From a virus (lineage: Duplodnaviria; Heunggongvirae; Uroviricota; Caudoviricetes), in the IMG/VR virus record IMGVR_UViG_2693429554_000013: 34,429 nt of DNA. One strand, written 5' to 3'. The notes below the pieces were generated by a model. It made no database searches and was not told the origin of the DNA. It saw only the letters and a list, made by a program, of their open reading frames with translations. Positions 19,091-24,091 of this stretch are shown here, in pieces (the stretch's first letter is position 1; each line of letters starts with the position of its first letter). The translations under genes were made by a program, and so were the position numbers.

Positions 19091-20239
19091 ATGACATGGC
19101 CATCTGTCACGATTGAACAGTACAACACATTCAGCAGTTCACCGGACGGCGTGGAAAATACGCTGCTGTTTGTGGGCAATGCACAAAACAACAAAGGTAA
19201 GGTTCTGCCGGTTAATGCCAACAGTGATCTGGACGAGCTACTGGGAACGAAAGCCACCCCGCTGAAGAACTTCCTTCAGTCCGCACTGACCAATGCCGGA
19301 CAGAATGCCTTTTTCTATGTTGCCGTTCTGCCGGAAGCCGGCAAGGGCAAAGAAGCGACGCCAGCCTGCCAGGCATGGCAGAACGCCATACTGGCGGCTC
19401 AGGAAACTGTTTCAGTTGAAGGCGTGGTGATCACCGAACCGGTCAGCACGAAGGATGACATCAACGCCATACAGGCGTTACGTCAGACCATCATCAATAA
19501 ATATCAGCGCCGCATCTGGTTCATCCTGACTATCGCCGCCAACGACAACAGTAAAACCTGGGCGGAATACGTTGCCGAGCTGACCACGCTACAGAAAGGC
19601 ATTGCAGCCCCGCAGGTCATGCTGGTTCCGGAGATTTTTGGATTTGAACCGGGCGTTCTTGCCGGTCGTCTGTGTAACAGCGCCGTCACCATTGCTGACA
19701 GCCCGGCACGTGTGGCAACCGGGGCGCTGTCCGCACTGAAAACCACAGAGCGCCCGAAAGACAGCGCAGGGCAGGCAATTGATCTCGACACCCTGCAGGC
19801 ACTGGCAACCGCCCGCTACAGCGTGCCCATGTGGTATGCCGACTATGACGGTCTTTACTGGGCTGACGGTGTAACACTTGAGGTGGAAGGCGGGGACTTC
19901 AACGTCATTGAGCATGTCCGCATTGCTGATAAGGTGGCGCGCCGCGTGCGGCTGATGGCCATCCCCAAGATTGCAGATCGCTCGCTGAACAGCACACCGG
20001 GCAGCATTGCCGCACATGAAACGCTGTTTGCCCGCCCACTGCGTGCCATGGCGAAATCCACGCAGATTAACGGCATCACGTTTCCGGGCGAAGTGAAATC
20101 GCCCAAGAAAGGCGACGTGGTTATCACCTGGCAGGACGAAAAGACGGTCAGCATCAGCATTGTTGTCCGCCCTTACGCCTGCCCTAAAACCATCAAAGTG
20201 GGCATTCAGCTGGATAAATCTCTGGAGGAAAACGCATGA
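19091..20239 (+). CDS. Putative tail sheath protein
   Basis: 382 aa from ATG 19091 (RBS AGGAG); immediately precedes a ~150-aa tube-like gene. Confidence 0.5.
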   Translation: MTWPSVTIEQYNTFSSSPDGVENTLLFVGNAQNNKGKVLPVNANSDLDELLGTKATPLKNFLQSALTNAGQNAFFYVAVLPEAGKGKEATPACQAWQNAILAAQETVSVEGVVITEPVSTKDDINAIQALRQTIINKYQRRIWFILTIAANDNSKTWAEYVAELTTLQKGIAAPQVMLVPEIFGFEPGVLAGRLCNSAVTIADSPARVATGALSALKTTERPKDSAGQAIDLDTLQALATARYSVPMWYADYDGLYWADGVTLEVEGGDFNVIEHVRIADKVARRVRLMAIPKIADRSLNSTPGSIAAHETLFARPLRAMAKSTQINGITFPGEVKSPKKGDVVITWQDEKTVSISIVVRPYACPKTIKVGIQLDKSLEENA

Positions 20240-20691
20240 CGACCCGCATTAACGGCATGGCGTTTGACACCTTTATCGGTGGAACGGATATCCATGTGAA
20301 AAGCATCTCACTGGACATCAGCGATGAAAGCGCCGTTGCCAAAACCCGTGGCATCCCTGACGGTAAACTGCGTGGACCTGTCAGTGCCGAAGGTGAAATC
20401 GAAATGAGTACCCGCAGCTTTAACCAGCTCGGGGAAGTAGCTGCTCAGGCGGGATCGTGGCGCGATCTGCCGCCAATGGATTTTGTGTTTTACGCCAACA
20501 CGGGCACTGAAGAAATCCGCGTCGAAGCCTTCGGTTGCGAGCTGATGCTTTCCGGCCTGTTAAGCATTGACACCGAGAGCGCAGATCTGACCACGCACAA
20601 AATCAAGTACGTGGTGGCAAGCCCTGACTTTGTGCGTATCAACGGCGTGCCCGTTCTCTCAGAGAACGACGTGCGCGGACTGATGGGGTGA
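20236..20691 (+). CDS. Putative tail tube protein
   Basis: 151 aa; ATGA overlap with sheath-like gene; size and position. Confidence 0.5.
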   Translation: MTTRINGMAFDTFIGGTDIHVKSISLDISDESAVAKTRGIPDGKLRGPVSAEGEIEMSTRSFNQLGEVAAQAGSWRDLPPMDFVFYANTGTEEIRVEAFGCELMLSGLLSIDTESADLTTHKIKYVVASPDFVRINGVPVLSENDVRGLMG

Positions 20692-20694
20692 ACC

Positions 20695-20991
20695 ATGCAG
20701 GAGCATGAGCGCACCATTATCACCCTGGGCATTCTGGGCGGAATCGCTGCCGCAAGTCGGGTGCTGGCTGGCGCAGAGCCGATTACGTTGCGGTTGTTTG
20801 TGGGTCGAACCCTGCTGGGGAGCGCGCTGGGTGTTTCTGCCGCTGCCCTGCTGGTTCGTTACCCGAACCTTGACCCACTGGCCATTGCCGGCGCAGGCAC
20901 TGCAATGGGCGTTGCCGGTTACCAGATTGTGGAAATCTTCCTGCGTCATATGCGCCGGAAGCTGGGCGAGAAAGAGAACAAAGAGGAGTAA
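20695..20991 (+). CDS. Holin-like membrane protein
   Basis: 98 aa; three hydrophobic segments and charged C-terminus RHMRRKLGEKENKEE; adjacent to endolysin. Confidence 0.55.
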   Translation: MQEHERTIITLGILGGIAAASRVLAGAEPITLRLFVGRTLLGSALGVSAAALLVRYPNLDPLAIAGAGTAMGVAGYQIVEIFLRHMRRKLGEKENKEE

Positions 20992-20996
20992 CAGCA

Positions 20997-21104
20997 ATGC
21001 TGTCCCGCAGGGAACAAAAAGCTGCCGCCATTGCATGGAAAATTATCCGGGCGTTGTGGCGCTGGCTGCGCAAACCTCAGCAACCTCATAAGGAGCAAAA
21101 ATGA
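20997..21104 (+). CDS. 35-aa basic amphipathic peptide between holin and endolysin
   Basis: ATG 20997 preceded by AAGAGGAG; stop overlaps endolysin ATG (ATGA); MLSRREQKAAAIAWKIIRALWRWLRKPQQPHKEQK. Confidence 0.3.
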   Translation: MLSRREQKAAAIAWKIIRALWRWLRKPQQPHKEQK

Positions 21105-21442
21105 AACTCTCCGATAAGCAACAACAATTTACCGTCATGATCGGAAAACTCATCGAGTTTGCCCATCAGCGCGGTTATGGCCTGACGTTCGGTGAGGCGT
21201 ACCGCACGCCAGAACAGGCAAAACTCAACGCACAAAAGGGATCCGGCATTGCCAACAGCCTGCACTGCCAGCGGCTGGCCGTGGATTTTAACCTGTTTAT
21301 TAACGGTGAATATCAGACCCGCACAGAGGCCTACCGCGAGCTGGGCGAGTACTGGGAGTCTCTTGGTGGCGCATGGGGCGGTCGTTTTAAAAAACGCCCG
21401 GATGGCAATCATTTCAGCCTTGAGCACGACGGCGTGCGCTGA
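21101..21442 (+). CDS. Endolysin, M15-family-like peptidoglycan peptidase
   Basis: 113 aa; His/Asp-containing segments (FAHQRGYG, LHCQRLAVDF, GNHFSLEHD) consistent with small zinc peptidase endolysins. Confidence 0.65.
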   Translation: MKLSDKQQQFTVMIGKLIEFAHQRGYGLTFGEAYRTPEQAKLNAQKGSGIANSLHCQRLAVDFNLFINGEYQTRTEAYRELGEYWESLGGAWGGRFKKRPDGNHFSLEHDGVR

Positions 21443-21513
21443 TTTTACGCTTAATAAGCCTTCCTGCAGGCTTATTAAGCCCTCTTATTCTTGACATTTA
21501 ACAGGACATTATT

Positions 21514-21807
21514 ATGGGCACCATTATTCGCGAGCAAAACATCGAAACAGACAACACCATCACTTTACAGGTCGGTGAACATGAACTGACATTTATCCCG
21601 ACCGTTAAAGCCTACAACGACCTGCAGAACGATTTCATGCCGGATAACAAAATCGCGCCGCTGAAAAACTACCTGCGCCGCATCGTGATTAAAGAGCACC
21701 GCGATCTGCTTAACCAGTTGCTGGAAAAACCAGGAATGCCGGCCAGCCTGGCAACAGCCGTGAATAACGAGTTTGTGCCGGAAGTGGAAATCACCGTAAA
21801 AAAATAA
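21514..21807 (+). CDS. Tail assembly chaperone (P2 gpE / lambda gpG analogue)
   Basis: 97 aa directly upstream of tape measure; ends at a slippery A_AAA_AAA run. Confidence 0.6.
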   Translation: MGTIIREQNIETDNTITLQVGEHELTFIPTVKAYNDLQNDFMPDNKIAPLKNYLRRIVIKEHRDLLNQLLEKPGMPASLATAVNNEFVPEVEITVKK

Positions 21808-21995
21808 AAAGCCATCTGGGGGCCATTGATCGCAATGACCTTACCCGGATGCTGATCCTGCGCCGCCACTGGCTGCCCGGCGAGGATGACTCGCCGCAGT
21901 CACTGGCTGCCGCCGTCTGGCTGGATAACCACTACTGGGAAAATATGAGCATCGCCGTCAATAACGGCATTATCCGTGCTTTTAAGGGATCGTAA
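21798..21995 (+). CDS. Minus-1 frameshift extension of the tail assembly chaperone (E+E'-like product)
   Basis: The -1 frame is open for 65 codons from the heptamer to a TAA whose last base is the first base of the tape-measure ATG. Confidence 0.5.
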   Translation, partial: KKIKSHLGAIDRNDLTRMLILRRHWLPGEDDSPQSLAAAVWLDNHYWENMSIAVNNGIIRAFKGS

Positions 21996-24091
21996 TGTCA
22001 CAACAGCGCCTTGAATTACTTCTTGAACTGACAGACCGCCTGACAAGGCCGTTGCGTGCAGCCGGACGACAGGTTCAGGGATTTGCTGCAACAAGTCGGG
22101 GAGCCTTTCGGGACATTGCTACCGGAGGCGCTGCGCTCTGGGGAGTGGGTGCAGCCATTCAGGGGGCACTGATGCCAGCCATTGAAATGGACAGGGCGCT
22201 CGGTGAGGTGAAATCACTGGGCGTCGCAGAGTCCGGATTGCGTAAACTCAGCCGCGCCGCCGTTGATTTCACTATGGAATACGGCGGGGCTGCGCAGGAT
22301 TTTGTGCGTGCTTCTTACGACATCCAGTCAGCCATTGCCGGGTTAACTGACGATGAGCTGTCCCGCTTCACCACCGCATCAGCAACGGTGGCAGCAGCAA
22401 CCAAATCCAGCAGCCAGACCATTACCGCCTACATGGGCACCATGTACGGCATCTTTAAAGACCAGGCTGATGCCATGGGAAAAAGCAAATGGGTGGAGCA
22501 GGTCGCCGGGCAAACCGCCACCGCCGTGCAAATGTTTAAAACAACCGGCGATAACATGTCAGCAGCGTTCACCACGCTGGGTGCCAGTGCAAAAGCGGCC
22601 GGTATTGATGCGGCTGAACAGTTCGCCGTGCTGGGACAACTACAGGCCACCATGAGTGGCAGCGAGGCCGGGACAAAATACAAGGCATTTCTTGCCGCAG
22701 TAGGCAGCGCCCAGAAAAAGCTGGGGCTTAATTTCGTGAATAAAGACGGCACGATGAAAAGTGTTGTCGAGATCATGAAACTTATCAGGGGTAAATTTGG
22801 TGATCTGTCAAAAGTGGCTGATTCCGATTTGCTGAAAAGCGCCTTTGGCTCCGATGAAGCTGTGGCCATGATTAAATTACTCAATGCGGACATTGGCGGA
22901 CTTGAAAAGAATATCGCCACGCTGGGCAATATCAAAGGTATGGATAAGGCTGTCGAAATGGCGCAGGCCATGGCTGATCCATGGGAACAGGCCGCCGCAA
23001 TTATTAACGGCATTCGCATCGAAATCGGCACGCAGTTGCTGCCTGTTCTGTACCCGTTTATCCAGAAAAGCAACGAAGGCGGTAAATCCTTTGTTGCCTG
23101 GTTACGTCTGTATCCCAATATCACACGGGCTATTGGTTTACTGTCTGCCGCCCTGCTGGGCATTGCCGCAGTGGGTGCCGTTGTCAACATTATGGTGGGT
23201 GTGGCGAAGTTTGTCTGGACAGGACTGCGGCTGGTCTGGCTGGCAGCAGTTGCACCCCTGAAGATTCTCATTCTGCTGAAACGCACACTGACGGCTACCA
23301 TGTGGGCATTCACTGTAGTTGCCCGAACGGTCAGGGCGTTGTATCTGGCCATGTCCATTGCTATGGGAACATACAACGTCAAAGCAAAAATTCAGCTGGC
23401 GCTGCTGAAATTACAGCGCGCCGGACTCTGGCTTTATTCTGTTGCGCTGGGTGCCGCCGGCATAGCAATGAAAATCTACACCGCAGTCACCAGCGGAGCT
23501 GCAATTGCAACACAGTTACTTTTCAGCCCCATCACATTAATCATCCTGGCACTGGCTGCGCTGGGCGTGGGCATTTATTTCCTGATCACCCGCTGGGATG
23601 AGATTAAAGTCGCGCTGATGGATACTGCCGCCTTTCAGTGGGTGGCTGAAATGGTCGGCAGTATGGGGGCATGGTTCGGCAATGCATGGAACACAATCCA
23701 GGACGGCTGGAATGCACTGGTTAACTATTTTTCCACGCATTCACCACTGGATGCCCTGAAGGATCTCGCGGGCGGCATCCTGAATATTTTCAGTAACCTC
23801 TGGGAACTGGTGAAACAGTCCTTCAGTGATTCATGGGGCTGGATTGTAGGCAAGCTCAACATGATCCCCGGCGTCAATATCGACACACCGGAAAGCACAG
23901 GAAGTGGCGAAGGCTCCGTATTAACCGGCGGCAAAGCCATCAGTGCGGGACCGGGCGGCATTGCGGCAGAGATGCAGAACAACAGCGAAAACCAGACCAC
24001 CATCGACAACTCCCGTCGTGTGGTTAACGTCAATGTGCAGGATCCATCCCCTGCCCGTCTTAACGAGTGGATGGAGCTGCATGCATACTGA
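21995..24091 (+). CDS. Tail tape measure protein
   Basis: 698 aa; Ala/Gly-rich helical N-terminal half and hydrophobic central segments; position after chaperone. Confidence 0.85.
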   Translation: MSQQRLELLLELTDRLTRPLRAAGRQVQGFAATSRGAFRDIATGGAALWGVGAAIQGALMPAIEMDRALGEVKSLGVAESGLRKLSRAAVDFTMEYGGAAQDFVRASYDIQSAIAGLTDDELSRFTTASATVAAATKSSSQTITAYMGTMYGIFKDQADAMGKSKWVEQVAGQTATAVQMFKTTGDNMSAAFTTLGASAKAAGIDAAEQFAVLGQLQATMSGSEAGTKYKAFLAAVGSAQKKLGLNFVNKDGTMKSVVEIMKLIRGKFGDLSKVADSDLLKSAFGSDEAVAMIKLLNADIGGLEKNIATLGNIKGMDKAVEMAQAMADPWEQAAAIINGIRIEIGTQLLPVLYPFIQKSNEGGKSFVAWLRLYPNITRAIGLLSAALLGIAAVGAVVNIMVGVAKFVWTGLRLVWLAAVAPLKILILLKRTLTATMWAFTVVARTVRALYLAMSIAMGTYNVKAKIQLALLKLQRAGLWLYSVALGAAGIAMKIYTAVTSGAAIATQLLFSPITLIILALAALGVGIYFLITRWDEIKVALMDTAAFQWVAEMVGSMGAWFGNAWNTIQDGWNALVNYFSTHSPLDALKDLAGGILNIFSNLWELVKQSFSDSWGWIVGKLNMIPGVNIDTPESTGSGEGSVLTGGKAISAGPGGIAAEMQNNSENQTTIDNSRRVVNVNVQDPSPARLNEWMELHAY

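Follow-up and report, generated by a model that had tools for sequence, protein, structure and literature searches.

The viral DNA analyzed here, a stretch of 34,429 nucleotides (IMG/VR record IMGVR_UViG_2693429554_000013, below referred to as the window), harbors two overlapping reading frames directly upstream of the tail tape measure gene. These are in all likelihood (at a probability of roughly 0.9) expressed by means of a programmed -1 ribosomal frameshift, which would make a short and a long form of the tail assembly chaperone. We infer from sequence comparisons that the shift occurs, as well as its efficiency and the roles of both products. Most ribosomes would stop at the TAA at 21805-21807 and release a chaperone of 97 aa, while a minority would slip back by 1 nt on the heptamer A_AAA_AAA (21798-21804), resume in the -1 frame at the ATA at 21804, add a 63-residue helical-hairpin domain (“DUF6890”) and end at a TAA overlapping the ATG of the tape measure gene, i.e., the long form would comprise 160 aa. 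The features of the locus are the following:

21514..21807, + strand: tail assembly chaperone gene, short zero-frame product of 97 aa, analogue of gpG / gpE (from Pfam and fold)
21798..21804, + strand: slippery heptamer A_AAA_AAA, proposed -1 shift site (from the sequence and homologous junctions)
21805..21807, + strand: zero-frame stop TAA of the short chaperone, adjoining the heptamer (from the sequence)
21804..21995, + strand: -1 extension, 63 codons plus TAA, putative analogue of gpT / E' (from PF21830, phrog_7050, tblastn and codon periodicity)
21810..21853, + strand: predicted RNA hairpin, possible weak stimulator, moderately supported (from an MFE fold; 5 nt 3' of the heptamer)
21995..24091, + strand: tail tape measure protein gene (PF10145, E=7.5e-29; TIGR01760, E=1.4e-20; phrog_28)

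Downstream of the tube gene (20236-20691) are found the chaperone gene (21514-21807), which is preceded by the Shine-Dalgarno (SD) sequence AGGA at 21503-21506, the -1 open reading frame (ORF), which extends to 21995, and the tape measure gene. The position of the pair, i.e., two overlapping ORFs between the tube and tape measure genes and directly 5' of the latter, is that of the G/GT-type class of tail chaperone frameshifts, reportedly defined by Xu, Hendrix and Duda in 2004. Direct reading of the sequence confirmed the proposal of the initial annotation that the chaperone ORF ends GTA AAA AAA TAA and that an A_AAA_AAA heptamer is located at 21798-21804 in the correct phase: the wobble position of GTA is taken by its first A, and the two zero-frame AAA codons fill the XXY and YYZ of the X_XXY_YYZ pattern. 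The -1 frame is stop-free from 21768 up to a TAA (21993-21995) that shares its last base with the ATG of the tape measure gene (21995-21997) in the sequence TAATG (21993-21997). The 65 stop-free codons previously reported for this frame correspond to 63 new codons, of which the first after the slip is ATA at 21804, and two re-read Lys codons counted from 21798. Conceptual translation of the chaperone/-1 fusion yields 160 aa, in agreement with the earlier estimate of about this length, and the first 97 residues are common to the short form. The junction-spanning Glu-C peptide of the predicted fusion is ITVKKIKSHLGAIDRNDLTRMLILRRHWLPGE, and in the conceptual translation SHLGAIDR is a tryptic -1 frame peptide located N-terminal to Met-16 of the extension.

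The upstream ORF had been called a tail chaperone at the outset, and this assignment is now backed by a Pfam match and a predicted fold. The ORF matches PF10963 Phage_TAC_10 (E=1.6e-26; 92.7 bits vs a gathering cutoff of 25.7) and also phrog_1214. A fold comparison of its predicted structure revealed the HK97 chaperone fold, which is that of the class; a sequence search of the PDB yielded a marginal match, 3FGX (E=0.08), which the fold later confirmed. The extension matches Pfam PF21830 DUF6890 (E=8e-24; 83.6 bits vs a gathering cutoff of 23.6) and phrog_7050 (E=8e-29), both of which are labelled as having unknown function in Pfam and PHROGs, respectively. Its structure, predicted from an alignment of database proteins, is, at high confidence, a two-helix hairpin (helices at residues 2-23 and 31-61; pLDDT 90.9). 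A tblastn search with the extension gave matches in 73 phage records, many of them from extension residue 1, which is where the match starts in K139, PV94, F108, SMHB1, PY3, SW3, ESSI-2 and YenM_324.

Other arrangements of these domains were also observed. Tandem duplications of the PF10963 chaperone in one polypeptide of 182-211 aa are found in proteins P0021, P0047 and P0151, where each copy ends ...V(K/S)K. A 96-aa protein of Salmonella Montevideo (P0008) combines the chaperone N-terminus (...KNYLRR) in frame with a DUF6890 part (HWLPGEDD...); it appears to result from a deletion between short repeated “LRR” coding stretches of the two halves, and the element that hosts it is probably a defective prophage. 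In the window itself, the first ~12 chaperone residues are MGTIIREQNIETDN, in contrast to MNDKNTQTTAEN in E. coli homologs that are otherwise ~90% identical, and the segment 21514-21555, together with the upstream gap, is read as a local N-terminal replacement relative to these homologs.

Homologous loci were drawn from E. coli genomes, GTDB genomes, IMG/VR contigs and GenBank phages (a narrow-pattern scan of genome contigs returned only 3 loci), and the resulting junctions span HP1, K139, F108 and phiO18P, Vibrio, Pseudomonas and Pseudoalteromonas phages, prophages and viral contigs. A DUF6890 homolog is found in the -1 frame in all of the about 66 distinct junctions, 64 of which carry one canonical in-phase heptamer at homologous codons, i.e., A_AAA_AAA, A_AAA_AAC, A_AAA_AAG or G_GGA_AAG. 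Absence of a conserved open -1 frame in homologs had been named in the initial annotation as an observation that would speak against the frameshift; the frame is open and coding in all homologs examined. The hosts of 24 representatives, with chaperone identities of 29-100%, include Escherichia, Edwardsiella, Yersinia, Cronobacter, Salmonella, Haemophilus and Pasteurella, as well as Aeromonas, Vibrio, Salinivibrio, Pseudoalteromonas and Pseudomonas. Each overlap in this set contains exactly one in-phase heptamer (A_AAA_AAA in 13, one of them internal, A_AAA_AAC in 9 and A_AAA_AAG in 2), and the downstream frame is -1 in 24/24. Among 32 close loci, GTAAAAAAATA[AG] is invariant and the flanks are variable. 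Comparisons were extended to 15 distant loci from viral contigs and to 53 further viral contigs (30 distinct junctions), and in all of the latter an A_AAA_AAC heptamer lies flush with the stop and is followed by a -1 downstream frame. The codon before the heptamer encodes Val, Leu or Ile, and its third base is A in every A-type junction shown, which is read as a constraint on a synonymous site.

At the protein level, a VK[KN] motif is present in 79 of 109 chaperone-type representatives from a library of 1.8 billion proteins, and 44 of these 79 end exactly there. One subgroup of chaperones ends ...VGK, from which the codons GTG GGA AAG were predicted; loci with G_GGA_AAG were then found, i.e., eight distant loci (L107-L114) with five distinct junctions, where this heptamer is located at the homologous codons and a DUF6890 homolog is found in the -1 frame. 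These members were retrieved with a C-terminal sub-alignment as the query; scans of viral contigs with single VGK/VGE-type proteins found no loci, nor did one metagenome scan. Two distant homologs (L116 and L118) read GTA AAG AAA, a sequence that holds no canonical heptamer and leaves only the shift-prone 4-nt motif A_AAG, and have kept the -1 DUF6890 frame, which suggests that such a site would support either a single-tRNA slip or a much lower efficiency.

The conservation in homologs is the decisive support for the frameshift. The A7 run in the window is not unusual by itself: 17 such runs are found vs 12.2 +/- 5.2 expected. This abundance would fit a coincidence without a biological role, in which an A-run happens to end a gene and the frame behind it happens to be open. 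In-phase X_XXY_YYZ heptamers occupy 5 of the 2693 in-phase positions in the tail genes (0.19%), a rate at which a single one is expected in a 12-codon overlap with a likelihood of ~2%. The heptamer at 21798-21804 opens a -1 frame of 63 codons, while the other four open 1-18 codons; an in-phase G_GGA_AAA at 22477-22483 within the tape measure gene, where the -1 frame is open for 18 codons only, is probably due to chance. Against a coincidence at the chaperone gene stands the fact that about 66 distinct junctions, from proteins as little as about 30% identical, keep the arrangement, that the heptamer type varies among the homologs while its phase and position stay, and that the -1 frame encodes a recognized, conserved protein family under purifying selection. 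With these comparative data, a chance overlap is effectively refuted already, and we assign a negligible probability to it.

The reading frames also leave a signature in the nucleotide sequences. The pairwise diversity at the three codon positions of the zero frame is 0.44/0.32/0.62 in the 90 nt that end at the heptamer, and that of the -1 frame is 0.39/0.33/0.62 in the 90 nt after it, i.e., codon periodicity switches from the zero to the -1 frame at the heptamer. Conceptual fusions are 148-162 aa long in 23 representatives, all of which have a chaperone start of the ordinary kind (254 aa in K139, owing to a long upstream ORF), and their alignment is gapless across the junction. The conserved residues of the extension, A-I-x-R-N followed by LRRH[YW]LP, W-L-D/E and A-V-x-N-G-I, begin six codons after the slip.

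This signature bears on the possibility that the “DUF6890 family protein” is the product of an independent gene, extending from the ATG at 21849 to 21995 (48 aa) and translated by initiation of its own or by re-initiation after 21805-21807, in which case the heptamer would be incidental. A separate CDS is called by PGAP and several phage annotators, both the Pfam DUF6890 and the phrog_7050 models begin near the Met of ATG 21849, and this in-frame ATG could in principle yield a separate 48-aa product in the window. An ATG is located at the same codon 15 in five of the 24 representatives besides the window, but in the remaining 18 this codon is GTG or TTG (three) or a non-start codon (fifteen), and in the E. 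coli E7-1N7 homolog, which is 81% identical, it is replaced by ATA, such that PGAP was forced to call a 29-aa fragment. Nor is an SD-like sequence found before ATG 21849 or before any other -1 frame ATG, GTG or TTG in any of the 24 members. The start positions in this frame are not conserved; in 5 of the 24 members no possible start occurs before codon 35, by which point the most conserved motif has been passed, and annotators confronted with a first start far downstream call shortened ORFs or nothing. Furthermore, both the conserved residues and the -1 periodicity reach the heptamer, 15 codons upstream of ATG 21849, and a product starting from Met-16 would lose two thirds of predicted helix 1 (residues 2-23). 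We consider an independent gene very unlikely. The second ORF lacks initiation signals of its own and shows coding conservation from the shift site onward, which is a characteristic of the G/GT-type class, and the DUF6890/phrog_7050 family can be assigned, from these comparisons, as the putative C-terminal domain that PF10963 chaperones gain by -1 frameshifting throughout the HP1-type Peduoviridae.

A fusion nearly identical to that made by ribosomal frameshifting, with one extra Lys, would be obtained if RNA polymerase slipped on the A7/T7 template and added an extra A to some mRNAs. The site in the window is indeed a homopolymer of seven A; efficient transcriptional slippage in bacteria usually needs runs of ~8-9 or more. 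Products of this kind are known to arise by slippage of the polymerase on A/T runs (PMC5009743). Many of the homologs, however, have only six A (A_AAA_AAC, A_AAA_AAG), and the distant loci L107-L114 carry GGGAAAG, i.e., no homopolymer, at the homologous position. What the family keeps is the in-phase X_XXY_YYZ pattern rather than the length of a run, and the conserved, essential homopolymer that characterizes programmed transcriptional slippage is not found in the homologs. Because of the non-homopolymeric G_GGA_AAG and the conserved phase and pattern, the data point to tandem slippage of the ribosome as the selected mechanism. Some slippage of RNA polymerase at the pure A7 run of the window is formally possible; as an explanation of the locus, we regard it as highly improbable.

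The shift on the ribosome could proceed by two routes, which would yield the same protein: a classical tandem shift of two tRNA-Lys in the P and A sites, or a P-site shift of peptidyl-tRNA-Lys with a slowly decoded stop codon in the A site. In E. coli, A_AAA_AAG is more prone to shifting than A_AAA_AAA and A_AAA_AAC, which are themselves shift-prone heptamers, and slow-to-decode codons in the A site favor slippage (PMC5009743). The stop codon that abuts the heptamer is the most conserved contextual feature around it. Of the 24 representatives, 21 have a stop flush with the heptamer, with TAA, TAG and TGA all in use, and so do all 30 further distinct A_AAA_AAC junctions as well as L113 and L114, which carry G_GGA_AAG. 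The TAA at 21805-21807 possibly stimulates slippage as a slow-to-decode A-site codon, and the stop-abutting heptamer is possibly a conserved feature with a mechanistic meaning. A stronger version is that of a “shifty stop” -1 site, where the flush stop is the stimulator and the shift competes with binding of the release factor; we consider this version tentative and rather doubtful. If it were correct, the ratio of short to long product in this phage lineage would be set by the efficiency of termination, i.e., the release-factor level and stop context, and not by RNA structure, and such a -1 site would represent a conserved design in a structural operon.

The downstream RNA was also considered, as a pseudoknot or stem-loop prediction 3' of the heptamer had been proposed as a check. 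A hairpin at 21810-21853 is predicted in the window, where the segment 21798-21900 has an MFE of -40.2 kcal/mol (z=-3.06). RNAalifold over 21 homologs yielded zero consensus pairs 3' of the heptamer and no covariation. In 21 of the 24 members, the 60 nt starting 3 nt past the heptamer are more stably folded than their dinucleotide shuffles (mean z -1.48), and in a scan of 53 offsets over the 24 loci this offset has the lowest mean z (-1.46 vs -0.32 +/- 0.35). There is, with moderate support, a tendency toward non-homologous local hairpins 3' of the site rather than a defined element. The only Rfam match in 21400-22100 is to a miRNA and is considered a chance hit. On the 5' side, the window has a one-mismatch SD-like sequence, GGAAGTG, at 21781-21787, 10 nt upstream of the heptamer; a dnaX-type SD-like element is not conserved in the family, where the mean anti-SD energy is -2.75 vs a background of -1.23 +/- 1.22 kcal/mol and many members have none.

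A nearly identical prophage (96% identity) is found in E. coli, where it sits between pheA and raiA and has P2-type portal, terminase and GPO scaffold genes, a P2-family capsid gene, ogr and cox. From the P2-type head genes, ogr and cox of this relative, the element in the window is assigned to the P2 family (Peduoviridae), as a prophage whose tail and lysis module is of the HP1 type. The genes upstream of the chaperone encode an HP1-type sheath (DUF2586), a tube protein (HP1 Orf24 family), a holin and an M15 peptidase, of which the latter two (PF04550 and PF13539, respectively) form a lysis cassette at 20695-21442, located between the tube and chaperone genes as in HP1. In relatives, YenM_324 among them, i- and o-spanin genes lie between the peptidase and the chaperone, and no obvious counterpart ORF is seen in the short gap of the window. 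This 72-nt gap contains, at 21449-21480, a perfect 13-bp inverted repeat, GCTTAATAAGCCT-TCCTGC-AGGCTTATTAAGC, followed by a T-rich tail. This element resembles a terminator, and a partial insulation of the lysis cassette from the genes for the chaperone and the tape measure could result from it.

The mechanism proposed here is a textbook one and holds little biological surprise; its practical value is a correction of annotations, because RefSeq/PGAP and most phage records split the locus or leave the -1 part unannotated. All 42 of 42 complete E. coli genomes with the element list two CDSs, a “putative phage tail assembly chaperone” and a “DUF6890 family protein”. A small downstream ORF is called in the records of phiO18P, F108, phi3, SW3, yong1 and A051, and nothing is called downstream in those of HP1, K139, ESSI-2, YenM_324, PV94, L9-1, SMHB1 and PY3. 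In the K139 record, orf30 (L036) is annotated as 192 aa with a start that overlaps orf29; the start is probably mis-called, because homologous chaperones are only 85-102 aa. The frameshift is unannotated in the window, and one annotator has already projected it for a distant homolog: only Pseudoalteromonas phage ACA1 has a joined CDS, for which the frameshift was projected by analogy with P2 (citing PMID 12426340). The literature searched, of which the coverage was incomplete, contained no experimental observation of a fused protein for members of the PF10963 family and no relevant frameshift reports for HP1, K139, PF10963 or DUF6890. Beyond annotation, the locus offers a natural series of interchangeable heptamers (A_AAA_AAA/C/G and G_GGA_AAG), mostly abutting a stop, which is usable for studying product ratios at stop-adjacent -1 sites.

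True homologs of both halves are found in HP1 orf26, K139 orf30, phiO18P gp36-37, F108 Orf31-32 and ACA1 gp36/gp36a. These HP1-type systems share with the window the -1 offset, the position of the heptamer and, in most cases, the abutting stop, but their chaperones are only 29-48% identical to that of the window and most of them use A_AAA_AAC instead of A_AAA_AAA; in ACA1 the heptamer is located 21 nt before the stop. Heptamers of the same lysine-codon class are also used in gamma-proteobacterial hosts by IS1 insA-insB' (A_AAA_AAC) and E. coli dnaX (A_AAA_AAG) (PMC5009743). The dnaX site differs in that it depends on an SD-like element on its 5' side and a hairpin on its 3' side, and the biological purpose of these sites is not that of a chaperone site.

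The initial annotation had placed the locus with the G/GT-type arrangements of lambda (G-T) and P2 (E/E+E'). As far as the architecture is concerned this comparison holds, while membership in the same sequence family does not, i.e., no homology to the P2 pair is detectable. The -1 frameshift that yields P2 gpE and gpE+E' in the FETUD tail operon was reportedly described by Christie et al. in 2002. Both elements belong to the family Peduoviridae, and the E. coli relative of the window prophage has the same head genes as P2. The products are similar in size, with a 91-aa chaperone and a 57-aa -1 extension in P2 vs 97 and 63 here, and in both cases the chaperone gene is located directly upstream of the tape measure gene, an in-phase heptamer is present and the stop of the extension overlaps the start of the tape measure gene (T). 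In P2, however, the heptamer is T_TTT_TTG and is located 18 nt before the E stop, whereas the A_AAA_AAA of the window abuts the stop; P2 E/E' are PF10109 Phage_TAC_7 and PF06528 Phage_P2_GpE, while the window has PF10963 and PF21830 only; and in the window, as in HP1 but unlike P2, the tube and chaperone genes are separated by a lysis cassette (holin, M15 peptidase). Comparison of the two halves with P2 E and E' gave BLASTP E values of 0.67 and 0.11 and hhalign probabilities of 0.2% and 0.7%. Residues 25-32 of P2 E' (IFHWPPSE) resemble residues 20-27 of the window extension (RRHWLPGE) at a similar relative position, a match that is insignificant in hhalign (0.75%); the likeness could be a trace of common ancestry or reflect convergent tube-binding chemistry.

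As in lambda, the locus just 5' of the tape measure gene encodes a short chaperone and a putative rare -1 long form that has the same N-terminal domain, and distant members of the family use lambda's own heptamer, G_GGA_AAG. Work on lambda gpG/gpGT (Levin et al. 1993; Xu, Hendrix and Duda 2004, 2013 and 2014, as reviewed in PMC5009743) established that the domain common to both forms binds the tape measure protein and that the rare long form recruits tube subunits, while neither is found in the virion; a G:GT ratio of roughly 30:1 is required (PMC5009743). By analogy, the chaperone domain common to the two forms encoded in the window would mediate their binding to the tape measure protein, the extra domain of the rarer long form would serve to recruit tail tube subunits, and neither form would be part of the virion. 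The locus is, on these comparisons, analogous to P2 E/E+E' and lambda G/GT: it would work in the same way and has the features of the class, while residing outside both sequence families.
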